From contig CAZKYP010000001.1 of assembly GCA_964556885.1 (NCBI GenBank), positions 2,122-66,121 of the forward strand: a DNA stretch of 64,000 nt, in the 5' to 3' direction. Positions within the stretch are counted from its first letter, which is position 1; each line of letters starts with the position of its first letter. A program made the position numbers and the translations under genes. Below are positions 17,025 to 34,576 of this stretch, piece by piece. This stretch comes from an uncultured Pirellulales bacterium. Lineage in GTDB: Bacteria; Planctomycetota; Phycisphaerae; Sedimentisphaerales; Anaerobacaceae. The notes under the pieces were generated by a model. It ran no database searches and had not been told where the DNA came from. It saw only the letters and a list, made by a program, of their open reading frames with translations.

Positions 17025-17546
17025 TCAAATTAGGTCTGCCGAAGCATCTCTATGTGATAATATAGGACTTTCCACGGGCCACCAGATACCGAACTGCGGC
17101 TCATTCCATCTGTATGTATATTGTTTCGATGGTTCGTAGTAAGTTGACTGCTTGTAATGGAAAATTGTCAGTTCGCTCATAACCAGATGAGCATTTCCGT
17201 ATCTCGGCGGAACCAAAACCTGAAGATTATTCCTGTCGGACAGAACAAATGACTGCCACTTGCCGAAGTCCTTCGATTTGGTATCACAATTAACCACGAC
17301 AAAATAAAATTTACCGTACAAACAGGATATCAGTTTCCATGTACAGTCGTCGCCATGAATGCCGCGCAACACGTTCCTCGTGGAGGTTGAAATATCGTCC
17401 TGGACAAAATTTACATCAATGCCTTTTCCCCTGTATAACTTCTCATTATATGTCTCTATATAGCGGCCGCGGTGATCTTCGAAAGGATCAGGTTGAATAA
17501 CTAAAACCCCATCCAGTTTTGTTTTTTCGACTTTTATCATAATCAA
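17025..17546 (-). CDS. RmlC-like cupin sugar-nucleotide 3,5-epimerase
   Basis: Contains LDGVLVIQPDPFEDHRGRYIETYN and RGIHGD, typical of dTDP-4-dehydrorhamnose 3,5-epimerase-fold enzymes. Confidence 0.8.
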   Translation of the reverse strand: MIMIKVEKTKLDGVLVIQPDPFEDHRGRYIETYNEKLYRGKGIDVNFVQDDISTSTRNVLRGIHGDDCTWKLISCLYGKFYFVVVNCDTKSKDFGKWQSFVLSDRNNLQVLVPPRYGNAHLVMSELTIFHYKQSTYYEPSKQYTYRWNEPQFGIWWPVESPILSHRDASADLI

Positions 17547-17618
17547 TCCGCTCTTTTCATTTCGGCTCGAAAAATATGGAACTAATAACCATTTATATAT
17601 CTGGTTTCCGGCGTGTCC

Positions 17619-19076: not shown

Positions 19077-19102
19077 TATGTTAAACTCTCCTGTTTTAAC
19101 AT

Positions 19103-20050
19103 CTACTTGATCGGTCTCCAGACCACGTAAGAATGAGAATCATCGAAGAAATTGCCGAGTTGCTGATGATGAACCTTAATTATCTCAATCCTGCCCTGTT
19201 CCTGAAGTTGACGCAGGTGGGTCAAAAAGCCATTCAAGTAGTTCTTTCTCTTATGATATTTCAATGCCAGATAGTCCGGCAGGGCGTCCTGGTTATAAAG
19301 CTCTATAATTCCCTCTATATTTGCACACAGTTCTGGAGACCTTTTCAGGATAAATTCCAGAAAAGGCCCGAAGTTATCTCCGACCTGTTCCAATGCCCCG
19401 AAAGTAAAGATTGCACTGTCGGGTTCTATCTGTATGTTTTCATCCGGGCTGAAAAAATCAAAATAACCGCCTGTGATAGACCAGTTATAGTGTTTAACCA
19501 ATAAACTTATAATTTCCTGTGAGGTTTGCGTCCAGTCGAAGCCGTAGAGCTTTTTATCTGGAAAAATTGTTGCCAGGTAGGCAAGATGCTGTGCTGCTCC
19601 ACAACCGAACTCATAAATATTTTTCACGTTTTGGAAAAATTTCTGAAAAAACCAGCTTCGAAACAGTTTAGTAGCGTTTACGAAAAAATTCTCATCGAGC
19701 GGAATAACATATTTCAGGTTAAGCCTGACTGAGACGTGTTTTCTGAAATATTTTGGAAATAACTTATCTATGTCAAAACCGGATTCGATTAATTCCTGTA
19801 AGTTTTCACCCCATCCTTTTTCCCATGCCGAGATTCTTTGTGGGCCTGTGACGGTTATTTCTTCGGAATCTATGAATTTAAGAAGTTTAAGGATTAATTG
19901 TTCTTTTTTCTCTCCGTCGATTATTCTATATCGAAAATCCGACTTCTCGATATGCTCTGCACAAAACTGTATGATTTCTTCTTCTGTTGCACCGAAAAGT
20001 TCGGCGAAATCTTTCCCTGTAAGATTATAAAATTTTTCACTATCGGCCAT
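19103..20050 (-). CDS. Class I SAM-dependent methyltransferase
   Basis: Glycine-rich motif I IYEFGCGAAQHLAYLA is followed by the acidic loop KLYGFDW. Confidence 0.65.
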   Translation of the reverse strand: MADSEKFYNLTGKDFAELFGATEEEIIQFCAEHIEKSDFRYRIIDGEKKEQLILKLLKFIDSEEITVTGPQRISAWEKGWGENLQELIESGFDIDKLFPKYFRKHVSVRLNLKYVIPLDENFFVNATKLFRSWFFQKFFQNVKNIYEFGCGAAQHLAYLATIFPDKKLYGFDWTQTSQEIISLLVKHYNWSITGGYFDFFSPDENIQIEPDSAIFTFGALEQVGDNFGPFLEFILKRSPELCANIEGIIELYNQDALPDYLALKYHKRKNYLNGFLTHLRQLQEQGRIEIIKVHHQQLGNFFDDSHSYVVWRPIK

Positions 20051-20080
20051 TTACACAATCCTTTGTTCCGAATACGAGCA

Positions 20081-21199
20081 TCAGATAACATTTATATGAC
20101 GTGGCGGATTGGCCATTTCATAGAGATACCCGTTGATTGAGTGCTGTTTACAGCAGAATTTCTGACACTTGTCCGTCTTGATTTCATCGTAAAAACGGTC
20201 GATAACCTGTCGCCACTGTTCGCTCTGCCAGATTTCCCCGAAGCGTTTCTCCTTCAGGTCACCCAGACAATACCTTTCATCCCGCCAACAGAGCTGACAG
20301 GGATACATTTTACCGTCTGCATCTATGTGTGTTTCGAATTCCACACCGTAACATTTTTTATAAGTCCGGGCAGGCGTGCTGACATTCATGAAATAATCAA
20401 GGTATTGCTCATTAAGGAAGACTTTGAAGTTTTCATCCTCCAGCGCCTTTGCCTCGGTAAACTTATCATTGTATTTCTGGTGGAAGGAGTTGCGCTGCCA
20501 GTGGTGATTTTTATTATGCCCCATCACAACAGACGGACAGGGTTTGAAGGCGTTAATCCCGATATTCTTGAGCAGGCGGGCAGTCTCTGCGATATAGGGA
20601 GTACTAAAGTCGAAAACGATATATGTTGCTATAATCACGACATCAAGGTTATCCCTGTCTCTTATCTTTACCGCTTCTTCCAGGGCATTGATAACAGAAT
20701 GAAAATGTGACTCGGGGCAGCCATGTAGCTTTGCATAAAATTCGGCATTATGTGCCAGGGAACTGACCCGCAAAAATGACAGGCTGGATTCAACCTTCTC
20801 CAGGATTTCCTTATTCAGAAGCACACCGTTTGTGACCAGACATATATCCATACCGGCTTTTTTACCAGTTACAATAGCGTCGGGGACTGCCTTGTTAAGC
20901 AGCGGCTCACCCGTTCCCTGAAGCTCACAGCATTTGACACCGGCTTCACCCATATCATGAAATATTTTTATGAGCAAATCTTCAGGAATAGACAAATTCT
21001 TGAATCCGAGATGCTCTACGTAGCAGTAGAAGCATTTCTGATTGCATCGATTTGTGGCGCTGACTTCCACGTACAACGGCGGAAACTTCTTGCCTTCTTT
21101 CCACTTTTGCAATGTATCGAGATGGTGGAAGATTCCGTGCAGACCGTCATAAGCGCCAAGCTTTATTCGTTGCGATTTTTTCTTTTTATCAGGTTCCAC
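20081..21199 (-). CDS. Radical SAM enzyme with C-terminal SPASM/twitch-type Cys-rich domain
   Basis: Has the cluster motif ATNRCNQKCFYCYV. The C-terminal auxiliary-cluster pattern is CYGVEFETHIDADGKMYPCQLC...LGDLKEKRFGEIW...DKCQKFCC. Confidence 0.8.
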   Translation of the reverse strand: MEPDKKKKSQRIKLGAYDGLHGIFHHLDTLQKWKEGKKFPPLYVEVSATNRCNQKCFYCYVEHLGFKNLSIPEDLLIKIFHDMGEAGVKCCELQGTGEPLLNKAVPDAIVTGKKAGMDICLVTNGVLLNKEILEKVESSLSFLRVSSLAHNAEFYAKLHGCPESHFHSVINALEEAVKIRDRDNLDVVIIATYIVFDFSTPYIAETARLLKNIGINAFKPCPSVVMGHNKNHHWQRNSFHQKYNDKFTEAKALEDENFKVFLNEQYLDYFMNVSTPARTYKKCYGVEFETHIDADGKMYPCQLCWRDERYCLGDLKEKRFGEIWQSEQWRQVIDRFYDEIKTDKCQKFCCKQHSINGYLYEMANPPRHINVI

Positions 21200-22409
21200 T
21201 GGACATACACTCCTTTGGCGTAGATTTTTTTACATCATTATTAATTCTGGCAAAACGGTCCTGCATAAAACCGGTGCCGTCTATATTATGCACAATGCCG
21301 GCTTTCTTTAACTCGACCTCGATAATTTTAAGGCGTTTATTCATTGTCTCGTCGTCAATCTTGTCGTCCCTGTTTGATGAGACGGCGCCGGGAGCGTCAT
21401 AATATTTGCTGACCAGAGCATACGCGGGCTTATAAACTCTCAGGAAATCAATCGTCTCCATGAAGTCACTTTCAGTCTCCGATGGAAAACCGACAATAAT
21501 ATGTGTATCGAAGGCTCTGAAATTCAAATCAATCATCAGGCCGAATACCTTATCCAAATCCTTTCTGTTGTACTGACGCTTCATTGCAGCGAGGATCCTG
21601 TCTGATGCCGACTGGATCGGAAGGTTGATATGTATCAGCCAGCCGTCTTCGATAAACTGCTTCATATCATCGTAAAAATCCAGGAAGTTCTTAGGATGAT
21701 AGTTTTGCAGGGCATAGACGGTCTGGGGATATTCGCAGCGCAGACGTCGGATAAGTTGTGGAAGGGAAGAGCCTGTGTCGATTCCATACATTCCGAGGCA
21801 GTCACCAAGAAGGATAATGCGACGCTGGCCCTGTTGTTCAATCGGTACGCGGCAGACCTCAACGAGTTCATCTTCGCTTACGCTTTTATAAGGCGGAAAA
21901 GCAAGCTTTTCAGTGCAATATACACAATTATATGGACAACCCTGACTAATAAGCAGTTTGAAAAATTGGTCTGCAAAAATAACATCCTCTTCGGGATGGA
22001 GTTCTCTGTATTCTGATGCGTCTGTGCAGATCGCATTTTCGTAATAGACCGGTGAGTATTTGTCAAACGAACCGGCTGGGGCGCCGAAATATTCATCGAG
22101 AAATTTCCCCTCCTTTTTCCAGGGGATAATTTTACCTTTAAAACTACCTTCAAGAAGCTTCCTGTCTATATCGGGAAGACAACCAAGCGATATGACCTCT
22201 CCGGGATATTCCCTGCTGCTGCGTTTTAACTCGGAAATACTGTTGTCGACCACATCTTTTCTATAGCCGCAGGTCCAGACCAGAATAACGTCGCTGTCGT
22301 ATGGATTGGATACGACTTCGTGACCGGTACTTTTCAAAAAACACCTATAATGCAAAAGGCTTTGCCTGCGGAGGGCACAAATGTTCAGTCCCTTGATATA
22401 AACTTTCAT
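21189..22409 (-). CDS. Radical SAM enzyme with MiaB/RimO-like (methylthiotransferase-type) N-terminal domain
   Basis: The N-terminal block DVILVWTCGYRKDVVDNSI resembles the MTTase N-domain. The radical SAM motif is SQGCPYNCVYCTE. It overlaps the downstream gene by 11 nt. Confidence 0.7.
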   Translation of the reverse strand: MKVYIKGLNICALRRQSLLHYRCFLKSTGHEVVSNPYDSDVILVWTCGYRKDVVDNSISELKRSSREYPGEVISLGCLPDIDRKLLEGSFKGKIIPWKKEGKFLDEYFGAPAGSFDKYSPVYYENAICTDASEYRELHPEEDVIFADQFFKLLISQGCPYNCVYCTEKLAFPPYKSVSEDELVEVCRVPIEQQGQRRIILLGDCLGMYGIDTGSSLPQLIRRLRCEYPQTVYALQNYHPKNFLDFYDDMKQFIEDGWLIHINLPIQSASDRILAAMKRQYNRKDLDKVFGLMIDLNFRAFDTHIIVGFPSETESDFMETIDFLRVYKPAYALVSKYYDAPGAVSSNRDDKIDDETMNKRLKIIEVELKKAGIVHNIDGTGFMQDRFARINNDVKKSTPKECMSSGT

Positions 22410-22472
22410 TTTTTCAGTTTCTCCACTATATCACAAGATTTATATGACAATCTAATTTAACTTCTTGAGTTT

Positions 22473-23273
22473 TTATTCCACTTCCAGATATGAAAGTCTC
22501 GAAGTCATTGACATACGCTGTATTCGCATTTTGCGCATGTCAATCGCCTCCCGCAACGCGGCCGTTTCTCCCGGGAAAACATTGTCTACCAAGTCGTCGA
22601 AAACAAGAATGCTTCCCTTGCAAAGATACGGTTGAATAATTTCAAGTGCTGCCTTTGTAGGGGTATAGATATCCATGTCAAAGACTGCCAGCGAAACAAT
22701 GGTCTCGGGATGTTTTTCAAGATAAACCGGAAGAGTCTGTACGACGTCACCTTTAATCAGCTCGAATTTCTTTATATGACTGATTGGATTAAGTTGCTCC
22801 TGGAGTGTGAGAATTTTATCGAGATGATTTTCATAGTTGCTCGTCACGGCGAAGGCGCCATCTTTACAATTATGATTGGAGCCATCTTGTTCGCACATAC
22901 CAGTGTGTCCGCGGAAAGTGTCGAATCCTACGATTTTTCGTGTGCGGTTAAAAGGCTCGAATATGCCACGTAACGACGAAAGGATAGACACTGTCTGTCC
23001 CCAGCGTGTCCCGAATTCGATAATGATGCCGTGCATATTTACAATCTTTTTGTATATTTCATAGAAAAACAAAAGCCTGGAGAAATTCTTGCTTGTAAGG
23101 TATAATCCCAGATTTGACAGAAGCTCATCGTCCGGAATCGGGCTGCTTTTAAGTATTTCAACGAGCTTCATCTGAGTCTCTTTTTCATCCGTACTGGAAT
23201 GGACAATATTTGAAACATTTTGAGTTTGCTTCGTTTCATTGCTCCTGACGTCGGTATATTCTTTTAATTTCAT
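22473..23273 (-). CDS. TylF/MycF-family sugar O-methyltransferase-like protein
   Basis: Contains GIIIEFGTRWGQTVSIL and the metal/SAM fold block LAVFDMDIYTPTKAALEIIQPYLCKGSILVFDD. This resembles the macrocin O-methyltransferase family. Confidence 0.65.
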   Translation of the reverse strand: MKLKEYTDVRSNETKQTQNVSNIVHSSTDEKETQMKLVEILKSSPIPDDELLSNLGLYLTSKNFSRLLFFYEIYKKIVNMHGIIIEFGTRWGQTVSILSSLRGIFEPFNRTRKIVGFDTFRGHTGMCEQDGSNHNCKDGAFAVTSNYENHLDKILTLQEQLNPISHIKKFELIKGDVVQTLPVYLEKHPETIVSLAVFDMDIYTPTKAALEIIQPYLCKGSILVFDDLVDNVFPGETAALREAIDMRKMRIQRMSMTSRLSYLEVE

Positions 23274-23322
23274 TTTTTATTCTCTTTCAGTGTTTATTGT
23301 TTACTCTTGCAGTAGGAGAATT

Positions 23323-24690
23323 TCAGCATGGTATTCCTTTCATTGCCATCTCCAGCCTATTGAGCAATTGTCCGGCCGGAAGATTGTCCTTATATAATAA
23401 CAATTCCGCCTCACATGCCTTTTTTGCATAGCCCAGCTTGCCCAACTGAGCCAGGGCCGTCGCTCTGGCAAATTCCAGATTAGGAAGCCACGGTGAAATT
23501 TCCTTAGCCTTGTCCAGGCTGATTAAAGCGTTCTGGGGCTCGCCGGCTTGCAGCTTTGCAACACCGTCTTTCATCAAGTCTGTAAAATTCGGGTAGCTGC
23601 CTACAAGAAGATTCATGTAATCATTCGCCTTTTCCTTCTGGCCGGATTCCAGGAACGATGAAATAAGTAATTTGAGAGAACCAACATCGTCGAATGATTT
23701 TTCGAGTTTCAATTTGTCGAGTATTTTACCCCAGAAGTTTTCAGGCCTGCAGAGTTCGAATGCTTTGCGTCTGCCGTTTTCAGCTATTGCAATTCGTTCG
23801 GAATCGTGTGTCAGGTAATACCTTGCCTTTTCGGCCAGATCTCTTTCATCTTTGAAAGGGACGAATTCCACCATCGGTTCGAACCATCTCGGTGTTTCAG
23901 GGTTATCTGATTCCAGCAGCATTGTCCCGCATAAGGTCGACTCCATCAGGCGTCCCTTGTATGTCAGCTTATCACCGGAGCCGCAGAAATTAAGAGATAT
24001 TTTTGATCGCTTATATATTCCCGCGTATTCCTCGAGAGTGAGTCTGTCCTCCAGTTGGCCGCCGGTTTTATGCACATTGATTCCGGCCGCTCGCAGGGCA
24101 TTAATGCCTTTAATCCTGTCTTGTTTGTTTATGATGCGGCCGTTAAAACTGATATTGATGTCCCTTTCCAGTTTCGGATCAAAAAATATTGTTGTATCCG
24201 ATGAAAACGGCAGGCTCATGTATTTGTCCGGGCGGGCGATGTTCTTAAAGCTTTCTATAGGATCCGTGGTGATGCCGACGTCTACCAGCGGCATAATTTT
24301 CTCGGCAAGCCTGACTATCAGGTCCGCCCACGTATCGGGCCACATTGCAATAATAGGTATTCTCAGGTTTTTCCTGATAATATACAGAGTCTCGAATGTC
24401 GGATTCAGGTAATCGGGAGCACTGGGCAGCCAGACCAGTACGAAATAATCCGGCCGGACAGCTTTGCACATTTGAATCAATTCCGAATCAACAGGGCGTT
24501 TGAGGGTAAGGTAATGATCGTCAACCAGAAAAACATCATAGGTTGCAAAATCCCAGCCGTTAAGGGTATCCCATGTGAAGTACGCACAGTTGCTTGGTCC
24601 GCGGTTCGGTTCTCCCCTCAGCCACTTGGTGCCCCAGAACAGAAAATGAGGTTTTTCTCTCCGTTTATAATCTGTTTTTGATGCATCCAT
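23323..24690 (-). CDS. CgeB-like (Glyco_trans_1_2 / DUF3880-type) glycosyltransferase fused to C-terminal TPR
   Basis: The central block is YKRSKISLNF...RLMESTLCGTMLLESDNPETPRWFEPMVEFVPFKDERDLAEKARYYLTHDSERIAIAENGRRKA. The C-terminus holds TPR-like helices (ALISLDKAKEISPWLPNLEFARATALAQLGKLGYAKKACE). Confidence 0.65.
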   Translation of the reverse strand: MDASKTDYKRREKPHFLFWGTKWLRGEPNRGPSNCAYFTWDTLNGWDFATYDVFLVDDHYLTLKRPVDSELIQMCKAVRPDYFVLVWLPSAPDYLNPTFETLYIIRKNLRIPIIAMWPDTWADLIVRLAEKIMPLVDVGITTDPIESFKNIARPDKYMSLPFSSDTTIFFDPKLERDINISFNGRIINKQDRIKGINALRAAGINVHKTGGQLEDRLTLEEYAGIYKRSKISLNFCGSGDKLTYKGRLMESTLCGTMLLESDNPETPRWFEPMVEFVPFKDERDLAEKARYYLTHDSERIAIAENGRRKAFELCRPENFWGKILDKLKLEKSFDDVGSLKLLISSFLESGQKEKANDYMNLLVGSYPNFTDLMKDGVAKLQAGEPQNALISLDKAKEISPWLPNLEFARATALAQLGKLGYAKKACEAELLLYKDNLPAGQLLNRLEMAMKGIPC

Positions 24691-24721
24691 ATAAACGTCC
24701 TTTCAGACAAGGTCGACAGGC

Positions 24722-25654
24722 TTAAACGTTTGCATACTGGTTTCTTTTTATTACCTGATATCCTTTGATCAATTCTGTTATGCCGTCATCCAGTGAATAG
24801 ACTGGCTTGAATCCCGCCGCTTCTATCTTCTCGTTGCTTACTATATAATTCCTTTTGTCCGGGTCCAGTCCAACTTTAGCCTCGACAAAATAGAATTTTG
24901 GAACCTGCTTTTGAATCCGCTCGCACAATTGCCATTTGCTCAGGTTGGCGTCGCTCAGCCCGACATTATAAGGCTGGTCTTTCATGCGATTGAAGTTGTC
25001 CAGGCAATGCAGAAAAACCCTTGCCACATCGCGTATATGGATATAGTTCCGCATAAAATGTGCCTGATAAAGAACGATATAGCCGTCATTAACAGCGCGA
25101 TATGTAAAGTCATTGACCAGAAGGTCCAGCCGCATTCTCGGGCTTATACCGAAAACCGTAGCCAGCCTTAACGTAATTACATCACCATCGGATAACAAAT
25201 CTTTTTCTATATCCACCTTTAGTCTGCCGTAAAGCGAAACAGGCTTAAGTGGTGTATCTTCAGTACAATGAATACCTTCCTGACCAATCCCATATCCGCT
25301 GTTTGTTGTCGGAAAAACAATCATCTGGTTTCTGCTTCGCAGCTCGAGAATCATTTTTATAGCATCGTATATGATCGATTTGGCTTCGATTGGAAATTTA
25401 TCACAAAGTGGTGCACCCGTAAGGCACGCAAGAGGCAGGATAACGTCGGCTTTTTTAATATGTTTCGAAATCAGGGATTTATCTCTGACATCGCCGCGAA
25501 TTATGTCGAGATGTTTACTGTGACAGCAATCCAGCAGTGACGCCTGGTTGTACATAAAGTTGTCAATAACAGTGACATCATGGCCGCTGCTCAGTAATTC
25601 CGGGACCAGAACAGAGCCAAGGTATCCTGCACCGCCTGTAACTAAAACTTCCAT
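24722..25654 (-). CDS. NAD-dependent sugar-nucleotide epimerase/dehydratase/reductase (extended SDR)
   Basis: Has the N-terminal VLVTGGAGYLGS motif and the catalytic YxxxK in SLYGRLK. Confidence 0.85.
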   Translation of the reverse strand: MEVLVTGGAGYLGSVLVPELLSSGHDVTVIDNFMYNQASLLDCCHSKHLDIIRGDVRDKSLISKHIKKADVILPLACLTGAPLCDKFPIEAKSIIYDAIKMILELRSRNQMIVFPTTNSGYGIGQEGIHCTEDTPLKPVSLYGRLKVDIEKDLLSDGDVITLRLATVFGISPRMRLDLLVNDFTYRAVNDGYIVLYQAHFMRNYIHIRDVARVFLHCLDNFNRMKDQPYNVGLSDANLSKWQLCERIQKQVPKFYFVEAKVGLDPDKRNYIVSNEKIEAAGFKPVYSLDDGITELIKGYQVIKRNQYANV

Positions 25655-25673
25655 GTCGACCTTTTTAACGTTA

Positions 25674-26585
25674 CTAATTCCATTCCACGATTGTGTTTAC
25701 GATACTTTCTTTATCAAGTCCGAGTTTACAATGAATATCTTCCCGTATCCCGTATGTATATAAATGGTCATCCGATACGGCCAGCCGCTTCAATGGAACA
25801 GATACACCGGCATCAGTTAGAATTTCGGCAACGATACTTCCGAGTCCGCCATTGATTGTATGCTCTTCGATTGTTATTGCCTTTTTTATGTTTCTTACAG
25901 CTTGAAGAATGCTCTTCGTATCGATTGGTTTGAGCCTATACAGTTCAACAACCTGCGCTTCAATTGAATACTTGACAAGTTCCTTGGCGATCTCGAGCGC
26001 CCTGTGTACCATCATGCCGGTAGCGATGATACAAATATCCCAACCTTTCTTAAGGACGGAAAATCCTTTATCTATATTTTCGTTTTCTTTATGCAGCAGG
26101 GGGTATTTGCCCCTGTCGAGCCGGCAATAAACGGGTGTTTTGGCTCGAAGAGAGACGTCAACAAGAGCGGCTGCCATATTCGTGTCAGCCGGACTGTATA
26201 TGTGCATATTTGGAAGAGCACGCATAACGGCGATATCCTCGGTGGCGTGATGGGTCGGTCCGTCTACACCGTATGCATAGCAGGGCCCCACACCTATGAG
26301 AGTTACAGGCAGATTCATAGCGCACAAATCGATTTTCAACTGCTCGTAGCAACGCAGTGTAATAAAAGAAGCTATGCTGTACACATAAACCTTCTTGCCT
26401 GCTAAGGCCATACCGGCCGCGACTGAAATAAGATTCTGCTCTGAGATGCCGCCGTTGATAAACTGCTTCGACAGGTCCGCTCGGAATTTATCCAGACTCG
26501 GGGCGCCGTATTCATTGGACATAAAAATTATGTCAGGATCAGATTTTGCCCGAGTATATAGTTTCTGGATAAATGCGTCTCTCAT
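25674..26585 (-). CDS. Transketolase, C-terminal (pyrimidine-binding) subunit of a split enzyme
   Basis: Contains GISEQNLISVAAGMALAGKKVYVYS and GVDGPTHHATEDIAVMRALPNM. It is paired with the adjacent N-terminal subunit gene. Confidence 0.88.
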   Translation of the reverse strand: MRDAFIQKLYTRAKSDPDIIFMSNEYGAPSLDKFRADLSKQFINGGISEQNLISVAAGMALAGKKVYVYSIASFITLRCYEQLKIDLCAMNLPVTLIGVGPCYAYGVDGPTHHATEDIAVMRALPNMHIYSPADTNMAAALVDVSLRAKTPVYCRLDRGKYPLLHKENENIDKGFSVLKKGWDICIIATGMMVHRALEIAKELVKYSIEAQVVELYRLKPIDTKSILQAVRNIKKAITIEEHTINGGLGSIVAEILTDAGVSVPLKRLAVSDDHLYTYGIREDIHCKLGLDKESIVNTIVEWN

Positions 26586-26607
26586 ATTAGTTCCAAATAC
26601 TCTATAT

Positions 26608-27501
26608 CTAACCGCGTTCCAATTCTTCTATCGCCATTTTAATTTCTTCCTTACGGTTTAAGGAACGGACATGCCATGTCGGATCATTTTCCATAAAGGA
26701 AATGCCTTTACCTTTGACTGTTTCGGCGATGATAATCAACGGCGTGCAGGTATCTCTCGAACGGGCATAGCGAAAAGCCCCGTCAAGCTGGTTAAAATCA
26801 TGTCCGTTACATACGACAGTTTCCCATCCGAAGGACTTCCACTTGTCACCAAAAGGCTCAAGGCCCGTGAAATTGTCTGTGAAATCGATTGATCCGATGT
26901 GATTTCTGTCCACAATAGCGACTATATTGTCTAATTCATGTTTGCCGGCAAACATGGCGGCTTCCCAGACCGAGCCTTCGGTACATTCGGCATCACCCAT
27001 CAGTACGAACTGGAAGTGATTTTTGTTATCCATTTTCGCGGCCAGAGATATACCGGCCGCAATTCCAAGTCCATGACCGAGAGAACCGCTTGTGATTTCA
27101 ACGCCGGGTATAGCTCTGTCCGGATGTCCGCCGAGAAAACAGTCACCTCGTCGGTAGCGGGTTTCGAGCCATGATACGGGGAAAAAACCGAGGTCCGCCA
27201 AAACGGCATACAGGGCGGTTTCGCCGTGTCCTTTGCTTAACAAAAATCGGTCCCGGTCTTCCCACTCTGGGACACTCGGGTCAACATTCAAATTGTGACC
27301 ATAGTATAGAGAGACCAGAATATCGACACAGGAAAGTGACGAAACTATATGCCCTCCGGTGCTTATACACATTTGTAATACTTTTTTGCGTATTTGATTC
27401 GCTTTGTGTTCCAATTCAACCGCATTCAGATGAAGTTCTTTTAATGAAGCGATTATCGTTTCCATGTTACGTTTAGTGGTATCTTCTTTTATAATCTTCA
27501 A
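26608..27501 (-). CDS. Transketolase, N-terminal (ThDP-binding) subunit of a split enzyme
   Basis: Contains GGHIVSSLSCVDILVSLYY, LSKGHGETALYAVLADLG, GSLGHGLGIAAG and the ThDP motif GDAECTEGSVWEA. Confidence 0.88.
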   Translation of the reverse strand: MKIIKEDTTKRNMETIIASLKELHLNAVELEHKANQIRKKVLQMCISTGGHIVSSLSCVDILVSLYYGHNLNVDPSVPEWEDRDRFLLSKGHGETALYAVLADLGFFPVSWLETRYRRGDCFLGGHPDRAIPGVEITSGSLGHGLGIAAGISLAAKMDNKNHFQFVLMGDAECTEGSVWEAAMFAGKHELDNIVAIVDRNHIGSIDFTDNFTGLEPFGDKWKSFGWETVVCNGHDFNQLDGAFRYARSRDTCTPLIIIAETVKGKGISFMENDPTWHVRSLNRKEEIKMAIEELERG

Positions 27502-27510
27502 TATTAATCT

Positions 27511-28755
27511 TCAAACCTTTCTCATGACCAGTCTGAGACTGCTTGTTAAAAGCTCTTCTTCACTATAGTCTTGCAGCTCACTTAATATATCTGGTGTCAG
27601 TAGTTCCAAATGTTTGAAGTTCATTCCAAATCTGATATGTACCGGACTTACAATTTGAAAAAGATCAGCTACTATTGACTTGTATTCTCTGGTGCTGATC
27701 TGGTTATATCCATCTGAATAAATATAATCGATATGAGATCCAATCGGGGCTGATTGAATGATCTCTTTGCAGCGATCTTTGTAGTATGATTTCATTCCTT
27801 CGGCGTTCTTTTTTCTAAGATGAATCCAAGGATCGTTCGGAAAAATTGTCTCTTTATGGTGACCAAAAGCCGAGTTCCACAACGGAGCCGCAAAACAATA
27901 AATAATTCCTCTTTTTGCAGTAACTCTTACCATTTCTTCAAGCGCGTCCTTCGGATTTAAGACATGTTCTAATGTCGCCATGGAACAACAAATATCAAAG
28001 GAATTGTCCTTAAATGGTATTTTCTCAGCCGAACCTCTGACATATCTTATCCGGGGATGTGGATAACCTTGTCCCACATCTTCTATTATATCTAATCCTG
28101 TTACTTCTTTGGCTCCCATACAGGCGAGCAAATCACATTCCAATCCCCTATTGCACCCTACATCCAGAACGGTTTGATTACGGATGTCAACATATTTCCT
28201 CATATCATTCAGTAAATTTTGATGATAGCTTTTTTGTTCTTTTTCCTGTTTTGTGCTTTCTTGTTTATGGGCTAATCTATCAAAACTACCTTTGTCCAGG
28301 AAAGCCGCTCTGTTTACGAGGATAAAGTTCTTCTCGACAGGTATGACTATTTTCACCTTTAGATTTTCAAGCCGTTCTATTACATTATCGAGCAGATTTT
28401 CATCTAATTGGCACTGGCTGAAAATCGTATATTCACCTTTTGCTTCCTGGGCCGCCAGGAGACATAACTGCACGAAATCAAGTCCTGCCGGAGGCTTAAT
28501 TATTTTAATGTCGTCGATAATGGTTTTTATGTGGGATTCGTCAATCGCAACTGAGCTGTTATTGATAATTATGAGTTCGTACAGGCCGGGTAGGCTGGTT
28601 GCCAATAGTGAGTGCACGTAATTATATGCGTTTGGACAGTCAGTACCTATAAAAAGAACAATAGAGCATCGTTTCTTGACCCGGTCTGTTCCGTAACCGG
28701 TTGCTGTCTTGACGCTATTAATGACTTTGGTGTTGTTTGGTTGAACACAGAGCAC
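27511..28755 (-). CDS. Two-domain protein: degenerate GT2-like N-domain plus class I SAM methyltransferase
   Basis: The C-terminal half has VLDVGCNRGLECDLLA...VTGLDI...FDICCSMATLEHV (Methyltransf_11-like). The N-terminal half, CSIVLFIGTDCPN...LIIINNSS, resembles a GT-A fold but has no clear DxD motif. Confidence 0.6.
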   Translation of the reverse strand: MLCVQPNNTKVINSVKTATGYGTDRVKKRCSIVLFIGTDCPNAYNYVHSLLATSLPGLYELIIINNSSVAIDESHIKTIIDDIKIIKPPAGLDFVQLCLLAAQEAKGEYTIFSQCQLDENLLDNVIERLENLKVKIVIPVEKNFILVNRAAFLDKGSFDRLAHKQESTKQEKEQKSYHQNLLNDMRKYVDIRNQTVLDVGCNRGLECDLLACMGAKEVTGLDIIEDVGQGYPHPRIRYVRGSAEKIPFKDNSFDICCSMATLEHVLNPKDALEEMVRVTAKRGIIYCFAAPLWNSAFGHHKETIFPNDPWIHLRKKNAEGMKSYYKDRCKEIIQSAPIGSHIDYIYSDGYNQISTREYKSIVADLFQIVSPVHIRFGMNFKHLELLTPDILSELQDYSEEELLTSSLRLVMRKV

Positions 28756-28992
28756 TTGTAAAGCTCCTAAAAACAGTTATCCAAGGTTACCTTTTTAATA
28801 ACTTTTCTTACTCTATAATAAGACAATCGCTTCATTTTGATGTCCTACGATTTTTCCAAGGTAATTTATTGTTCTTGTTAGATATTGATAAAGACCGGAA
28901 CGAAATTGTTGATCCAGTTCTATCTCCTCCTTTCTCAAGAACACGCTTGATTGAACCGTGACTTTCCATTAATATCCACCCCATTAGTTACT

Positions 28993-29322
28993 TTACTGTA
29001 AATCAATATTATTTCGATAAGTTCCGACTATTTTTCTGCCTATGCGGACTTGACAAAGCTTATTGGCGGCGTCGGCCTTCTGGCATTCCAGAGACAAATA
29101 TAAACTGTCATATAATTCCCGGAGCCGTTTCCAATGATCTTCATAACCGGAATGTTTATGTATCCCGGCCTGTGTTATTTTCTGTACGAGTGAATCCGTC
29201 TGTGTGCCGAGCAGTTTGATTTGTTCGCCGGAAGAATTACCATGTTGAACCAGCTCGATCTGTTTTTCCAACATACTCTGTAATTCTCTCAGCATTTGTT
29301 CTTCGGTGGTTGTATTCATCAA
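28993..29322 (-). CDS. Small helical protein of unknown function (possible FlgN/FliT-style chaperone)
   Basis: 109 aa with predicted helical heptad-like composition. Its ATGA overlaps the stop of the upstream TPR gene. I recognise no diagnostic motif. Confidence 0.4.
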   Translation of the reverse strand: MMNTTTEEQMLRELQSMLEKQIELVQHGNSSGEQIKLLGTQTDSLVQKITQAGIHKHSGYEDHWKRLRELYDSLYLSLECQKADAANKLCQVRIGRKIVGTYRNNIDLQ

Positions 29323-29969
29323 ATTTCTATTTTTGCCAGTTTTTCCTGTGCCAGACTGTGTTCGACTTCTTCCAGCAGATTGGATGCATCCTTATGACCT
29401 GAATCCAGCGTCAGAAGGTCATAAAGTACCTGTTTTGACTGCTCCAGCTTTCCGTCTTTCAGATATAACGCTGCAAGCGGGAACATTACAGACGTATCAC
29501 CCGGATGCATATCCAGATACACCTCCAGATAATGAGTAACCTGTTCGAAGGAACCCATCTGGCTGGAAGTTTGAAACAGTCCAAGGAGAGCCGCGATATT
29601 ATCGCTGTCAAGTTCCAGGCATTTCAGATACATCTCGAACGACCGTCTGTAATCGCTTTTTTTCTGTGCCACCAGGCCCAGACCGGCGTAAGCCTTGGCA
29701 CAGTTTTTATCGAGTCTGCATGCAACCTTGAAAGCGGCTTCCGCGTCTTCGAGCATATTTTCCTGTAGAGCAATAACTCCAAGCCCGACATAAGGACCAG
29801 CTTCATCAGTGGCAAGAACCGCCGCTTTTTCGTAATATTTTTTTGCCTGTGTGTAATTACCCAAAGAAGTGTGACAATCCCCCAATTCCTGTAATACTTC
29901 ATAATGTTGCGTAGAGTCATGCTGTTGGTCGATATCGTTTTGGGTTATGTCCATAATTTTTTCCCACAA
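29319..29969 (-). CDS. Stand-alone TPR repeat protein
   Basis: Shows repeated 34-residue A/Y/G patterns: LGNYTQAKKYYEKA, LEDAEAAFKVACRLDKNCAKAYAGLG, YRRSFEMYLKCLELDSDN. Confidence 0.7.
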   Translation of the reverse strand: MWEKIMDITQNDIDQQHDSTQHYEVLQELGDCHTSLGNYTQAKKYYEKAAVLATDEAGPYVGLGVIALQENMLEDAEAAFKVACRLDKNCAKAYAGLGLVAQKKSDYRRSFEMYLKCLELDSDNIAALLGLFQTSSQMGSFEQVTHYLEVYLDMHPGDTSVMFPLAALYLKDGKLEQSKQVLYDLLTLDSGHKDASNLLEEVEHSLAQEKLAKIEI

Positions 29970-30010
29970 GTACTCCGGAGATTTTCACTTGTTCCGGTAA
30001 GTAATCCGTT

Positions 30011-31588
30011 TCAGCGACATCCGGAAAAATATTCCATTTCATTGTTAAGTATCTGTTCAGCCGATTCGAGCAGTTCAATTGCCGAATCGAAATTATTCTC
30101 GTTTCGTTTAATCTTCGCCTCTAATAAAAGCGTATCCACAGAGGGTCTTTGATTGTTAATTTCACTGTTGAGTATCGCTGCTCTTCTTAAATCTCCGGCT
30201 TTATAGAATGCCTTTGCGGCCATAGTCATCATCCACAACCGGTTCCGATGGTTGTCAGCAATGTGCTCAAACAATTCGGCCGCTTCCAGCCATTCTCCAT
30301 CCCGGCCGGCCGATTTAGCCTGTTGGAGTAAATTGTCGAACTGGAAAGGATACTCCTTAAAGTCCGGTTTTCTTACGGCTATTCCGGAAGCCTTTAAAGA
30401 TTCATATACTGGTAAATCAGGCCTGTTTTTTCTGGCAATAAGCAGGTCTTCTTTACGAATCACCGCCGCCCAAAGTTCATCTGTCGATTCTTCAAGCTCA
30501 AGTACCTGCCGGTCAACTGGATTGTTGATCATTGCGTATAGCGGGATTTCGATCCATAGATCCTTTATTGGATATCTGTCAGATACTATTCCGATATAAT
30601 CCCCATCACATTTTTCAAGAACCGCATCAATACGTCGGGCTGAAGATGCTGTTTCATCTACTGGTATGAAAATCAGGTTGGGCATATCGGTATTTAATTT
30701 GGCAAACTCGGACTTTGGCATGGGTATATATATTTTATATGGGTAGAACGTACACCGCCAGATAGTAAGTATGGCCGTAGCAGTCTGTATGTCTACGTGG
30801 TCGGAGAGAAATATGAGTGACATATCCTTAATCTTAGGCCAGGGTTTGGCCGGTCTGGTTGTTCGTATTGTCAGTACGTTCCAGAAATATTTGTTTGTAT
30901 CTTTACGCTGCTGAACCGATATTCTGTCACAGTCACCCATCGGGTGGTAATATTCACCGGTGATTTCATGGACATGATGAAAATCAGAAAAGAAGACCAG
31001 CCGACGAGCCATATCCCAGTCAATTAGAACATTTAGCTGCTCGTTGTAAGGCCCGGTTTTATCAAGCAAATCCAAACGGTGCATCAGGCATACGTGCAAA
31101 ACGTGATTGAATAATAACATAAGGAAACGGTCGAAGTCCCGGCTGACCTCGACAACTTTACTTAAGACCTGCCGTGTGCCGTCCGACATAACTTTACAGT
31201 AAACTTTGTAGAAGTCGCTGTAGGCGACCTGGCAATCGGTATCTCCTTCGAGGGCATCGACCAGTGTCCGGATATGATTGGGGTAATATATATCATCGTC
31301 GTCAAGGTATGCAACATATTTACCTTTGGCCCTTTCAAGGGCTTCATTTAGAGAATGGGCCTTGCCGCGGTTTTCCTTTCTGTTGATAAATATCAATCGT
31401 GGATCTTGAAATGAACGAATTATATCACTAACATCATCACCACCGTCGTTGACCACGAGTATCTGCATATTCTCGTAGCTCTGACCAAGAACGCTGGCCA
31501 GCGCCTTATGCAAATATTGGGGGCGGTTGAAAGTCGAAATAAGCACGCTAACCACCGGCCCGGCCATTTTCTCATAATTTTCCGACAT
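30011..31588 (-). CDS. GT2 glycosyltransferase with C-terminal TPR domain
   Basis: The N-terminus reads PVVSVLISTFNRPQYLHKALASVLGQSYENMQILVVNDGGDD...YLDDDD. The C-terminus has TPR-like helices (WLEAAELFEHIADNH..., AKAFYKAGDLRRAA). Confidence 0.8.
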   Translation of the reverse strand: MSENYEKMAGPVVSVLISTFNRPQYLHKALASVLGQSYENMQILVVNDGGDDVSDIIRSFQDPRLIFINRKENRGKAHSLNEALERAKGKYVAYLDDDDIYYPNHIRTLVDALEGDTDCQVAYSDFYKVYCKVMSDGTRQVLSKVVEVSRDFDRFLMLLFNHVLHVCLMHRLDLLDKTGPYNEQLNVLIDWDMARRLVFFSDFHHVHEITGEYYHPMGDCDRISVQQRKDTNKYFWNVLTIRTTRPAKPWPKIKDMSLIFLSDHVDIQTATAILTIWRCTFYPYKIYIPMPKSEFAKLNTDMPNLIFIPVDETASSARRIDAVLEKCDGDYIGIVSDRYPIKDLWIEIPLYAMINNPVDRQVLELEESTDELWAAVIRKEDLLIARKNRPDLPVYESLKASGIAVRKPDFKEYPFQFDNLLQQAKSAGRDGEWLEAAELFEHIADNHRNRLWMMTMAAKAFYKAGDLRRAAILNSEINNQRPSVDTLLLEAKIKRNENNFDSAIELLESAEQILNNEMEYFSGCR

Positions 31589-31624
31589 TCCAGGAGTATC
31601 TTACTTTCTCTTCGTAACAATGAT

Positions 31625-33181
31625 TTATGTGATCCAATTATTCTCGAATATCCGAGAACCAGTAACAGCGGGATGTTTATATTGCTTGATATTGGAATTT
31701 TGCGAACTGTTACTTTGCGCGGCCGCAGTTTGTTGCGAATCTATTGAGGTCTCAATCTGAGTAAAAATATCGTTGATCTTGTTCAACTGTTTATTCAACG
31801 AATACTTTTCTTCTACAAAACTACGATACCTGTGCGGCTCGTACGGCCCGGAGCAAATTTGTTCGCAAAATTCTTCAGCGATATTGAATAAAAATTCGGA
31901 GGGGAACGTTTCGCTCGCTCCCGGAAAGTTATGTATTACGGGTTTCAAACCGCAAGCCATCGCTTCCAAAAGTCCCATGCCCTGACTCTCGATAAGGCTG
32001 GTCGAAACGATGTAATGTTTGTCCCTGAGCCATGCATTGACGTTTTCCTGCCAGCCGTCGAAGAAAATCACGTTGTTGAGATTAAGAGCATCAACCATGT
32101 GTCTTACATATTGCTCGATGGTTTCATCCTGGAACATACCTCCAAAGAACAGGCGGTAGCCGGGGTCTATATAGTGTAGTTTCTGCATGCACTGCAAAAC
32201 AAAAGCAGGATTCTTCACCGCTCTAATGTTAGACAGGAAGGCTATGTTTTTCCCTCGCGGCCGGTCGACGAAATTAAATTGGTCGAAATTTATACCGTTG
32301 GGAATAGTGACGATTGATGTTTGACTTTCAAGTGATGGGACCTTTCGGAAGAGGGCGTCCTTTACAAACTTGTTACCAATTATTACAAGGTAATCGATGT
32401 CGGACCAGTTTATCTGTTGCGGCCACGGCCCATAAGCTTCATAACGATGCAATCTTATAATGTTCTTACAGACCTTTGGCATCTTGGAACCGATAACCGC
32501 AAGGTCGGTGCACCATTCAAACCATGAAATATCGCTCCATTTCATCAAGTCGTACAGTTCTTCCTCTGTTTTACCGTTAAAAATACGTATTTCAAATCGC
32601 TGGTCTGTAAATTTTGTGATTTCATCAAGAAATTTCATACCATCAGCGCCGCAAATAAATGCCAGCTTCGGTCTTTTGTAACGAATTACATCGATCATCG
32701 GCCGCAATATTTCCTGATCGGGACAAATTTGGAGGGAATGAAGCAACATTTCGATTGCCCCGGCTTTGTTATCCTGATCAAGTAATACATTGGCGGTTCT
32801 GTTCAGAACATCTGCATTTAAGATATTCATTCGCTCCATATCATTAAAAAGCTGTACCGCTTCATTTGCTCTGCCGGTCGCCAGATATGCCTCCACCAGG
32901 TTCCAAACTATTTCACCGGAATCGTTTTTCAGGGAACGGGCCTTGAGGAAATGATCTATGGCTTCTTTTGAGCGGCCCAGGCAATGGAGAATCGCTCCTG
33001 TATCATTCAGGGCCTGTGCATCATTTTTATCGGTAAGAAGATATTCCTGCATGTACACAAGGGCCTGCTCGTATTGTCCGTTTTCGGCTAATTTCAAACC
33101 TTTTTCGTAATTATTGAGGTTTCCATGGTTTCCATCATGTATTTGCCCATCGTGGCTGTTCAAATTTATGTCCTTTATCAT
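31625..33181 (-). CDS. N-terminal TPR domain fused to GT-B (GT4-like) glycosyltransferase
   Basis: The N-terminus has TPR repeats (GQYEQALVYMQEYL, GRSKEAIDHFLKARSL, GRANEAVQLFNDM). The C-terminus has the GT-B signature STSLIESQGMGLLEAMACGLKPVIHNFPG (E-x7-E region). Confidence 0.78.
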   Translation of the reverse strand: MIKDINLNSHDGQIHDGNHGNLNNYEKGLKLAENGQYEQALVYMQEYLLTDKNDAQALNDTGAILHCLGRSKEAIDHFLKARSLKNDSGEIVWNLVEAYLATGRANEAVQLFNDMERMNILNADVLNRTANVLLDQDNKAGAIEMLLHSLQICPDQEILRPMIDVIRYKRPKLAFICGADGMKFLDEITKFTDQRFEIRIFNGKTEEELYDLMKWSDISWFEWCTDLAVIGSKMPKVCKNIIRLHRYEAYGPWPQQINWSDIDYLVIIGNKFVKDALFRKVPSLESQTSIVTIPNGINFDQFNFVDRPRGKNIAFLSNIRAVKNPAFVLQCMQKLHYIDPGYRLFFGGMFQDETIEQYVRHMVDALNLNNVIFFDGWQENVNAWLRDKHYIVSTSLIESQGMGLLEAMACGLKPVIHNFPGASETFPSEFLFNIAEEFCEQICSGPYEPHRYRSFVEEKYSLNKQLNKINDIFTQIETSIDSQQTAAAQSNSSQNSNIKQYKHPAVTGSRIFENNWIT

Positions 33182-33254: not shown

Positions 33255-33268
33255 GCAAATTCCGTGCC
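33255..33268 (-). promoter_or_regulatory. sigma-54 -24/-12 promoter candidate at the head of the modification island
   Basis: The minus-sense sequence is cGGCACGgaatTTGCTg, with GG-N10-GC spacing. It lies about 75 nt upstream of the TPR-GT gene ATG, which is preceded by an AAGGGAG Shine-Dalgarno site. Confidence 0.6.
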
Positions 33269-33391: not shown

Positions 33392-34576
33392 TTATTGAAG
33401 GAAATCAATCAATGAAGCAGATGTAAGTGTGCCGATAACCGAAAGCGACATTTGGTACAGAATTTCACGACGGGACAGATCGATGGCAATTTGGGCAATA
33501 TCGGCTTCCTGCAGGCGGGTGGTTTCGTCTTCAGTGTTGTATTTAATATTTTCCAGTGAATTCTTTATATCTTCCAAGAATCCGATTCTCGATCCCGCAG
33601 AAACGGATTTCTCCGCTAAAAGACTTCTAACCTCTTCCAGTGAATCGACAGCCATATCTCGCAGCTCCGACAATTCGGCTTCAGAGAATTCTTGATCATT
33701 CTCTAAAATATCACGAATAGTAATGAGCGTTTGAAATATATTATGAGTTCCTGGTACGCTCACCATATCAGTTCCTGTGCGGCTTATTTCGGTAGTATCG
33801 ATATACAATACTTCTCCGGTAGTAGAATTGGTAACCGCCAGATTGGTATCTGTGCCGTCGGTATGAAAAGTGCTCAAGCCGCCGTCAATAGATAAAGTAT
33901 AATCTCCGGCTGAGCCGGTGACGGTCAGCCATATATTTCCTTTTACGCTCGAAGTACCGGTCCCGGTCTGAGCACCGGTCTGACCTACAAAAACCGGCTC
34001 GCCGCGATCGTCTGAACTGAATAAATCATCACCGACAAAAAATGCCGATGAGTTGATATTGGGAGCTATTTCTATATTTCGATTCTCATAACTGCCCTGG
34101 TAGGTAACACTGGTTATTTCCCCGTTGGTTCGTTCGATAAGGTACGGTACTGTAGTTGTGTTACTCCCCCCGAAGAGATATTGGTTCGAATGTTTGGTAT
34201 TGGCAAGTAAAACCATCTGCTCCAATATGTCGTTGATTTCTTCGGCGGTTCTTGCCCTTGCATCTTCTGTATATATACCGCTGGTAATCTGTGTAAGAAG
34301 TGTGTTGGTTGACGACAGGCTCGTTGACATGTCGTCGATCACGCTGGACGAAATCTCCAGAGTGCTGATAACCTCCGAGAGACTGTCAATGTAACTGGTC
34401 AGTGATCTGTCCTGAGAATTCAATCCCAGCACTCTGAACGCGCTCGAAGGATCGTCTGACGAACGATTAATTCGCGAGCCTGTGGCTACCTGTTCCTGCA
34501 ATAATGCCATTGCGTTAGTATGAAGACGCAAAGCATAGCTTGCATTGTCATATATGCTGTTCAGTGTTCCACTCAT
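33392..34576 (-). CDS. flgL: Flagellar hook-filament junction protein FlgL (HAP3)
   Basis: The N-terminus has ATGSRINRSSDDPSSAFRVLGL, which is FlgL-type rather than the flagellin LSSGLRIN type. It lies directly downstream of flgK. The C-terminal helix is ILYQMSLSVIGTL. Confidence 0.85.
   Translation of the reverse strand: MSGTLNSIYDNASYALRLHTNAMALLQEQVATGSRINRSSDDPSSAFRVLGLNSQDRSLTSYIDSLSEVISTLEISSSVIDDMSTSLSSTNTLLTQITSGIYTEDARARTAEEINDILEQMVLLANTKHSNQYLFGGSNTTTVPYLIERTNGEITSVTYQGSYENRNIEIAPNINSSAFFVGDDLFSSDDRGEPVFVGQTGAQTGTGTSSVKGNIWLTVTGSAGDYTLSIDGGLSTFHTDGTDTNLAVTNSTTGEVLYIDTTEISRTGTDMVSVPGTHNIFQTLITIRDILENDQEFSEAELSELRDMAVDSLEEVRSLLAEKSVSAGSRIGFLEDIKNSLENIKYNTEDETTRLQEADIAQIAIDLSRREILYQMSLSVIGTLTSASLIDFLQ

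Follow-up and report, generated by a model that had tools for sequence, protein, structure and literature searches.

A putative flagellar glycosylation island with a conserved four-gene core in Sedimentisphaerales

Introduction

The choice of acceptor by cytoplasmic O-glycosyltransferases is understood for only a few systems, namely FlmG, Maf-1 and the GlfM-Maf-2 pair. In FlmG a tetratricopeptide repeat (TPR) region (residues 1-313) precedes a glycosyltransferase (GT) domain of GT-B type (residues 309-596) and is both necessary and sufficient for flagellin binding (PMC7591256). FlmG has been reported as confined to Caulobacterales; the TPR of Maf-1 from Shewanella oneidensis also binds flagellin, and GlfM, a four-helix protein of 89 amino acids that resembles FliS and FliT, bridges Maf-2 to flagellin (bioRxiv 10.1101/2023.12.03.569772). 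The combination of a GT with a TPR in a flagellar island already serves as an annotation rule for flagellin glycosyltransferases (PMC13317340), and no single protein is conserved among the islands of the Enterobacteriaceae (PMC4875605). The TPR of GmaR stabilises its own protein through an intramolecular contact (PMC9638930). Here we describe a locus from an uncultured planctomycete of the order Sedimentisphaerales (Phycisphaerae, Planctomycetota). It occupies part of a 64-kb stretch of contig CAZKYP010000001.1, hereafter the window, in which an island of 27 kb and 18 genes (33181-5940, minus strand) lies between flgL and fliD and encodes three GT-TPR fusions and a free TPR protein.

This locus is probably a flagellar glycosylation island whose enzymes build glycans in the cytoplasm directly on proteins instead of a lipid carrier, and it consists of a sigma54-driven core of four genes and a variable sugar block. 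TPR-tethering is a known strategy for the glycosylation of flagellar proteins; what is new here is a core of four genes with a sigma54 promoter of its own, a GT4-type enzyme in an FlmG-like layout and giant enzymes with multiple GT and TPR modules.

Results

The minus strand of the window carries a string of flagellar genes that runs, from 44959 to 3806, through flgE, a 413-amino-acid open reading frame (ORF), flgF, flgG, flgA, flgH, flgI, a gene for a FlgJ-like rod-binding protein, flgN, flgK, flgL, the island and fliD. The upstream boundary of the island is flgL (33392..34576, minus strand), encoding the hook-filament junction protein (NCBIfam TIGR02550, 169.2 bits against a cut-off of 127.2), and the downstream boundary is the filament-cap gene fliD (3806..5845, minus strand; Pfam FliD_N and FliD_C). 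With GTs and sugar genes inside a flagellar cluster, and a content that varies between relatives, the locus has the make-up of a flagellar glycosylation island. At 41-45% GC the island shows no clear difference from its flanks, and there is therefore no compositional sign of recent transfer.

We fetched 80 species-level loci around relatives of the first island gene, which encodes the fusion that we call TPR-GT4, and took gene counts on the 44 that are at least 20 kb long and come from different species. Four genes follow flgL in a constant order in these 44 loci. They encode TPR-GT4 (44/44 loci, median identity 63%), a second fusion, GT2-X-TPR (39/44, 61%), the free TPR protein (43/44; its 70% is the highest value in the core) and a protein of about 105 amino acids (37/44, 38%). 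The structural genes flgK and flgL are present in all 44, at median identities of 57% and 61%. Orthologues of TPR-GT4 are 57-70% identical in the 80 species-level loci and always stand after flgL, and homologues of the two core enzymes come from metagenome-assembled genomes of Phycisphaerae/Sedimentisphaerales. Every other island gene of the window occurs in at most six of the 44 loci, and the third fusion, a CgeB-like protein, in just one. The core fusions are conserved like FlgK and FlgL and the CgeB-like one is rare, and the three fusions are therefore not equivalent: judged by these counts, two belong to a clade-wide core, conserved like structural flagellar genes, and the third is a rare accessory. 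A minimal locus of flgL, TPR-GT4, free TPR, small protein and fliD is complete in L007; L035, L054 and L056 have this arrangement plus a remnant of GT2-X, and L048 has it with the small protein not detected. GT2-X-TPR is lost or reduced to a remnant in all five.

TPR-GT4 (31625..33181, minus strand; 518 amino acids) consists of about 4.5 N-terminal TPRs (residues 24-167) and a GT4-type GT-B domain. TPR families match residues 25-155 above their Pfam cut-offs (TPR_2 39.2 bits, TPR_16 35.2, TPR_12 34.6), and the AlphaFold2 (AF2) model, built with 35 homologues, has nine helices at residues 24-167 with a predicted local distance difference test (pLDDT) score above 90. Glycos_transf_1 (PF00534) matches residues 310-426 with 55.9 bits against a cut-off of 26.4, and together with Glyco_trans_1_4 it spans residues 310-442. 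The EX7E motif is the hallmark of retaining GT4-type enzymes. In TPR-GT4 it is found as E398-x7-E406, with both glutamates unchanged across 35 homologues and kept in at least 95% of 80, alongside PF00534 above its gathering score. The protein has no hydrophobic segment. A fusion of an N-terminal TPR to a C-terminal GT-B domain had been proposed for this ORF by a model that read the window without database searches (the sequence-only reading), and it is clear in both halves.

The superhelix formed by TPRs has a concave groove that is lined by the A helices. Among the residues of the TPR-GT4 repeat region that are at least 95% conserved in the 80 orthologues, ten polar ones map to the four A helices, which comprise 49 residues, and three to the four B helices, which comprise 55; the conserved residues N59, N94 and N127 all lie on A helices and are spaced by about 34 residues. 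Because the conserved polar residues are concentrated on the helices that line the groove, the pattern suggests a conserved peptide-binding groove like those of ligand-binding TPRs. Mean column identity is 0.73 in the TPR and 0.77 in the catalytic domain.

Used by itself as the query against 1.8 billion representatives, the GT domain retrieved 696 relatives at E ≤ 1e-30, most of them with an N-terminal extension of about 120-165 residues. Distant relatives, 38-45% identical in the GT domain, still stand directly after flgL (L088, L090), and in L088 TPR-GT4 is the sole island gene. L090 (5239-9953) holds two TPR-GT paralogues and an extra GT1 between flgL and the genes for the GT2, TPR and small proteins; the TPR-GT module has therefore been duplicated within islands. 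Further afield, a Latescibacterota TPR-GT (L084, 8563-10341) is encoded beside radical-SAM/SPASM enzymes (SAM, S-adenosylmethionine), a transglutaminase-like protein and ABC exporters in what may be a glycosylated-peptide system, and L086 (10001-11830) has a GT2-GT1 fusion whose surroundings, which include HNH and RuvC genes, are phage-like. When TPR-GT4 was compared with plasmids by tblastn, five weak matches to the GT domain were obtained; the two that were inspected lie in non-flagellar contexts, in polysaccharide-type loci.

GT2-X-TPR (30011..31588, minus strand; 525 amino acids) is composed, according to Pfam, AF2 and Foldseek, of a GT-A (GT2) domain, a second alpha/beta domain (residues 256-410) and three TPR-like hairpins (414-523). 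Glycos_transf_2 (PF00535) matches residues 14-119 with 105.5 bits and D97-D98-D99 is invariant in 35 homologues; the two features of a GT2 (GT-A) enzyme, PF00535 above its gathering score and a DXD motif, are both present. The AF2 model has six confident helices at 414-523, which superpose on designed three-TPR proteins (Foldseek: template modelling (TM) score 0.83, root-mean-square deviation 2.0 Å), and the second alpha/beta domain is well folded in it. Over the whole chain, the fold of the model is matched best by two enzymes with two GT-A domains each, chondroitin polymerase and heparosan synthase. The sequence-only reading had described an N-terminal GT2 fused to a C-terminal TPR. Its GT2 is strongly supported and three TPR-like hairpins are modelled, while the TPR stays below threshold in Pfam and the additional domain had been missed.

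The free TPR protein (29319..29969, minus strand; 216 amino acids, the true start being probably an ATG at codon 6) is predicted to be soluble and has neither a signal peptide nor a hydrophobic segment. It consists unambiguously of TPRs only (Pfam TPR_8 60.2 bits, and others), just as had been read from the sequence, and its likeness to TPR chaperones of the SycD/LcrH type is weak (NCBIfam, 48.8 bits against a cut-off of 104.8). The small helical protein (28993..29322, minus strand) has a conserved motif, RKGKKTIxxYRxNI, at its C-terminus. The start codon of its gene and the stop codon of the free TPR gene overlap in the sequence TGATG (29319-29323), an arrangement that suggests translational coupling of the two. 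Among 35 orthologues, 15 have weak Pfam matches to FlgN and 11 to FliT (best E=1.2e-6); the copy in the window has none. A PDB profile search with the family gave matches at chance level only (ribosomal S20, designed helical bundles). No curated NCBIfam family matches the GT-TPR proteins, the free TPR protein or the small protein at its cut-off.

The 210-nucleotide gap between flgL and TPR-GT4 contains a sigma54-type -24/-12 promoter motif (GGCACGGAATTTGC; 33255..33268, minus strand), 87 nucleotides upstream of the TPR-GT4 start. The pattern GGCAC-N5-TTGC occurs in 59 of 70 orthologous flgL/TPR-GT4 gaps, 58-159 nucleotides upstream of the gene, against a background of 0.064 per kb. Five of its seven matches in the window are intergenic and correctly oriented: besides the one ahead of TPR-GT4 they stand before fliO (14-27, plus strand), the island GHMP-kinase gene (16879-16892, minus), flgE (45466-45479, minus) and a gene for an 835-amino-acid TPR protein (47598-47611, plus). 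With such motifs before TPR-GT4, the GHMP-kinase gene and flagellar genes, the island is therefore taken to be wired into the flagellar sigma54 hierarchy, and the whole flagellar region, island included, appears to be sigma54-driven. A sigma28-type promoter pattern was found in none of the 70 flgL/TPR-GT4 gaps, and scans for sigma70 promoters and terminators across 22000-34000 remained at chance level, which fits long operons.

All 18 island proteins fall below the membrane-helix hydropathy threshold (maximum 19-residue hydropathy <1.6) and are predicted to be soluble. In the island Pfam finds no domain of an initiating phosphoglycosyltransferase, flippase or polymerase (Wzx/Wzy), ligase, oligosaccharyltransferase or exporter, and in the related loci three of 300 downstream ORFs are multi-hydrophobic. 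The absence of membrane and lipid-carrier components gives a picture of a cytoplasmic pathway that is free of a carrier. The sequence-only reading had likewise favoured protein over lipid-linked acceptors and had named undecaprenyl-phosphate-linked intermediates together with a flippase as the sign that would speak for the latter; the lack of a flippase in Pfam, and the predicted solubility of the 18 products, support its view.

The CgeB-like fusion (23323..24690, minus strand; 455 amino acids) is a CgeB-type glycosyltransferase (Glyco_trans_1_2, 69.3 bits; one homologue is named CgeB by its source) with a TPR-like tail of about 125 amino acids at its C-terminus. Eleven homologues were found, three of them with the tail. 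In P0242, which is 66% identical to the window protein, the tail scores above threshold (TPR_14, 28.2 bits against 23.5). The fusion is paired with a downstream Methyltransf_24 gene (22473-23273), and the same methyltransferase is its neighbour at P0242. Its description as a CgeB-like GT with a C-terminal TPR is thus secure for the GT domain and weak for the tail, which is below threshold in the window copy.

The variable block for sugar biosynthesis and modification (15067..28755, minus strand, excluding 23323-24690) encodes, according to Pfam, a GT2-like protein with a methyltransferase domain, a split transketolase-like pair, an NAD epimerase, the Methyltransf_24 protein, three radical-SAM enzymes, a 315-amino-acid protein of unknown type, an RmlC-like epimerase, a GHMP kinase and a nucleotidyltransferase. 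The GHMP kinase and nucleotidyltransferase genes stand upstream of a gene for a 3053-amino-acid protein and would fit the activation of a heptose-like sugar. The radical-SAM trio (17619-19076, 20081-21199 and 21189-22409, minus strand) is unusual in a sugar pathway; it comprises a B12-binding type, a SPASM type and a UPF0004+radical-SAM type (MiaB/RimO-like methylthiotransferase), and these enzymes might modify the glycan or the protein itself. The split transketolase-like pair, an N-terminal half and a pyrimidine/C-terminal half (25674-27501, minus strand), adjoins the NAD epimerase gene and may add a two-carbon branch to a sugar. Related locus L001 (15166-19065) has two such thiamine-diphosphate enzyme pairs.

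The 3053-amino-acid multi-enzyme (5940..15101, minus strand) has no membrane segment and contains six GT2 domains, one GT9 (heptosyltransferase-type) domain and a SAM methyltransferase (residues 1175-1325); a faint methyltransferase-like stretch at about 850-920 is below threshold. Three TPR blocks supported by Pfam (about 300-470, 1083-1150 and 2313-2385) are interspersed between the catalytic modules. The matches for a fourth, C-terminal block were too faint to count (E=0.016-0.043). The sequence-only reading had counted seven or more TPR blocks joined to catalytic modules in the locus; six are supported, three in the fusions and three in this protein. Partial relatives of at least 1700 amino acids occur in other loci, for example L032 (66% identity) and L077 (46%).

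Elsewhere in the window, the plus strand carries fliO, fliP, fliR, flhB, two genes for sigma54 activators, fliL, a fliM/N-like gene, flhA and a gene for a fliA-type sigma factor. Two more TPR proteins, of 835 (47705-50212, plus strand) and 288 (50203-51069, plus strand) amino acids, are encoded between the two activator genes. The 413-amino-acid ORF between flgE and flgF (42014-43255, minus strand) has no Pfam or NCBIfam match. L001 and L002 have unannotated ORFs of 442 and 438 amino acids at the flgE/flgF position, similar to it in size and position, and the ORF may be an unrecognised flagellar component. An Rfam scan of the whole window gave no matches.

Discussion

Our findings confirm what the sequence-only reading observed: the four ORFs that it named are found at exactly the positions it gave, all on the minus strand, and three corrections apply, namely the weakness in Pfam of the TPR tails in two of the three fusions, the extra alpha/beta domain and the number of six TPR blocks. 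Its interpretation, in which the TPRs dock protein substrates for glycosylation, is partly supported. What we infer are the identity of the acceptor, the docking of substrate by TPRs, the sequence in which the enzymes act and the part of both small proteins as adaptors. A sigma54-dependent promoter after flgL would drive the four-gene core. The TPR groove of TPR-GT4, a retaining-type enzyme, would hold a flagellar protein destined for export, most likely flagellin, in an unfolded or partly folded state, and its GT-B domain would place a first sugar on Ser/Thr. GT2-X-TPR, an inverting-type GT-A enzyme with a short TPR of its own, would add a further sugar or serve other sites, while the free TPR and the FlgN/FliT-like protein would form an adaptor/chaperone pair that keeps the substrate export-competent and presents it to the enzymes. 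The variable block would make strain-specific activated sugars and would extend and decorate the glycan directly on the protein, using the GHMP kinase, nucleotidyltransferase, epimerases, transketolase-like pair, radical-SAM enzymes and methyltransferases, the CgeB-like GT-TPR and the 3053-amino-acid enzyme, and the TPR blocks of its enzymes would tether each catalytic module to the protein substrate.

More tentatively, and in a reading that we hold to be less likely than not, the four core genes could be taken as an undescribed, phylum-specific class of flagellar glycosylation. Two TPR-tethered transferases, from families unlike those of FlmG and Maf, would act with a dedicated TPR/chaperone pair, would be obligatory for assembly of the Sedimentisphaerales flagellum and would make the substrate ready for megaenzymes, the 3053-amino-acid protein among them, which would build a long decorated glycan processively on protein without a lipid carrier.

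Several observations weigh against a glycosylation island whose TPRs dock flagellin. Neither the window nor the stretches within 10 kb of the core in 83 related loci contain a flagellin gene, as judged with a hidden Markov model from FlgL orthologues that was run over the 4825 ORFs of the window and all loci and matched only FlgL fragments. The adjacent flagellin gene that goes with flagellar glycosylation islands is thus missing throughout; genetically, the core is therefore linked to flgKL and fliD and not to the presumed acceptor, and the filament genes of this clade must lie elsewhere. Two of the TPR tails are sub-threshold in Pfam: that of GT2-X-TPR reaches E=0.0018 with TPR_19 when the whole protein is searched and 3.4e-5 (24.5 bits against 25) when the tail is searched alone, and that of the CgeB-like fusion matches only TPR families, the best at E=0.0016 in the window copy. 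The GT-B half of the TPR-GT4 model is poor (pLDDT 30-60), and the geometry of TPR groove and active site is therefore not readable from it. The wider GT-domain family is also found in non-flagellar settings, namely the Latescibacterota locus with radical-SAM enzymes and ABC transporters, the phage-like one and the polysaccharide-type loci on plasmids. The TPRs could equally hold enzymes together and not substrate, and we found no published binding, glycan or mutant work for this clade.

It is unlikely that the system glycosylates FlgK, FlgL, FliD or the hook instead of flagellin, with the FlgN/FliT-like protein and the free TPR as ordinary export chaperones. In every locus the core has flgKL on one side and fliD on the other, and never a flagellin gene, and the central region of FlgL is rich in Ser/Thr. 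The small protein has its weak FlgN and FliT matches, which recall the known chaperones of FlgK/FlgL and FliD, and the free TPR protein weakly resembles SycD/LcrH-type secretion chaperones. However, a canonical flgN (36676-37197, minus strand) is already present upstream of flgK and flgL, and the TPR chaperone matches are generic cross-matches, far below cut-offs. In Pseudomonas aeruginosa, too, an island for flagellin glycosylation is reported to lie after flgL (Arora et al. 2001). Moreover, the experimentally established TPR-bearing flagellar glycosyltransferases all act on flagellin (PMC7591256; bioRxiv 10.1101/2023.12.03.569772).

Less likely again is a purely architectural role, in which the TPR blocks are scaffolds that assemble the GTs, the free TPR protein and the sugar enzymes into one complex, or stabilise their own enzymes as in GmaR (PMC9638930). 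The position of the TPR blocks between the catalytic modules of the 3053-amino-acid protein suits a spacer or inter-domain role, and the free TPR protein is co-conserved with the enzymes. Yet the repeat region of TPR-GT4 is as conserved as its catalytic domain and has polar residues on its groove-lining A helices, and the TPR is kept where no partner enzyme is nearby, as in L088.

We consider it very improbable that the island builds a lipid-linked or secreted polysaccharide, such as a capsule, sheath or envelope glycan, and lies in a flagellar position by accident. By sequence, the GT2 domain is closest in the PDB to enzymes that make polysaccharides or lipid-linked oligosaccharides (PglI, chondroitin polymerase and SpsA), domains of the GT4, GT2 and GT9 types are typical of envelope glycan synthesis, and distant homologues occur in plasmid loci of polysaccharide type; against this, neither a membrane protein nor an enzyme of a lipid pathway is present among the 18 island genes, the same is true in related loci, a flagellar-type sigma54 promoter heads the block and the linkage to flgL is strict. 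There is just as little to recommend a mainly regulatory role in flagellar expression or assembly for one or both conserved fusions, with catalysis secondary, for while they are as conserved as structural flagellar genes, persist without sugar-pathway genes (L007, L048, L088) and have a precedent in GmaR, which combines GT2 with TPR and is an anti-repressor as well (PMC9638930), there is no similarity to the linker or anti-repressor domains of GmaR at profile E ≤ 1 and the catalytic motifs are invariant, which would argue for retained enzymatic function.

If the island glycosylates flagellar proteins in the way that we propose, the clade offers a third enzyme lineage that uses the logic of TPR-tethering, and its conserved pairing of a free TPR protein with a chaperone-like one could represent a novel type of adaptor. 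The giant multi-GT-TPR proteins may assemble complex glycans on protein, and this makes them attractive for glyco-engineering without lipid carriers. The proposal also gives a first functional hypothesis for four genes that are conserved like flgK and flgL across the Sedimentisphaerales.

Comparison with known systems

FlmG from Caulobacter crescentus and Brevundimonas (PMC7591256) shares with TPR-GT4 a soluble build, with the TPR at the N-terminus and the GT-B domain at the C-terminus, and is similar to it in size (596 and 518 amino acids, respectively). Both are encoded with flagellar genes, and FlmG itself is a cytoplasmic protein whose TPR binds flagellins. The two differ, by description, in that FlmG transfers pseudaminic or legionaminic acid and needs a nonulosonic-acid pathway, whereas TPR-GT4 is of the Glycos_transf_1/EX7E type and belongs to Planctomycetota. 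Among the window ORFs of at least 150 amino acids there is no Pfam match for NeuB/PseI, a PseC-type enzyme or a CMP-nonulosonate synthetase.

Maf-1 and the GlfM-Maf-2 pair resemble the present system in having a TPR on a GT in the one case, where it confers binding of the acceptor, and a small helical protein encoded in cis in the other, where it acts as an adaptor. GlfM is the nearest published analogy for the protein of about 105 amino acids and the free TPR. The Maf enzymes differ in their MAF_flag10 domain, for which no island protein has a Pfam match, and in transferring nonulosonic acids.

GmaR, the flagellin O-GlcNAc transferase and MogR anti-repressor of Listeria monocytogenes (PMC9638930), is a cytoplasmic flagellin-modifying enzyme in which, as in GT2-X-TPR, an N-terminal GT2 is followed by helical repeats of TPR type. 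It is larger (637 amino acids), its TPR domain has 14 helices, and it also contains a linker and an anti-repressor domain, whereas GT2-X-TPR has a second alpha/beta domain and three hairpins. Residues 141-637 of GmaR do not match GT2-X-TPR at E ≤ 0.01 in the PDB phmmer search or at E ≤ 1 with a profile of 35 orthologues, and the likeness to GmaR that had been suggested is reduced to a shared order of GT2 and TPR, with no similarity outside the GT2.

The suggested likeness to OGT fares no better. OGT and SPINDLY (GT41) have, like TPR-GT4, an N-terminal TPR superhelix before a GT-B domain and an A-helix Asn at the TPR periodicity, but the catalytic domain of TPR-GT4 is Glycos_transf_1 and not GT41, and OGT chains in the PDB align only to its TPR, at residues 39-157. 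An assignment to GT41 was considered, as SPY and OGT head the Foldseek matches, and was set aside: the TM score is about 0.23 on a model whose GT half has a pLDDT of 30-60, and Pfam gives Glycos_transf_1.

At the level of the locus, the flagellin islands of Clostridium (PMC13317340) and the Enterobacteriaceae (PMC4875605) likewise place hypervariable GTs, sugar genes and methyltransferases in a flagellar locus, and where they include TPR-bearing GT2 proteins or glucosyltransferases the combination of TPR and GT is the signature of a flagellin-specific transferase. Those islands adjoin flagellin genes; the island described here occupies the flgL-fliD position, has a four-gene core at 38-70% identity and encodes a 3053-amino-acid multi-GT enzyme. 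Taken together, the best reading of these comparisons is that the system would work like FlmG, Maf-1 or GmaR but, on the features compared, does not qualify as a member of any of these families.

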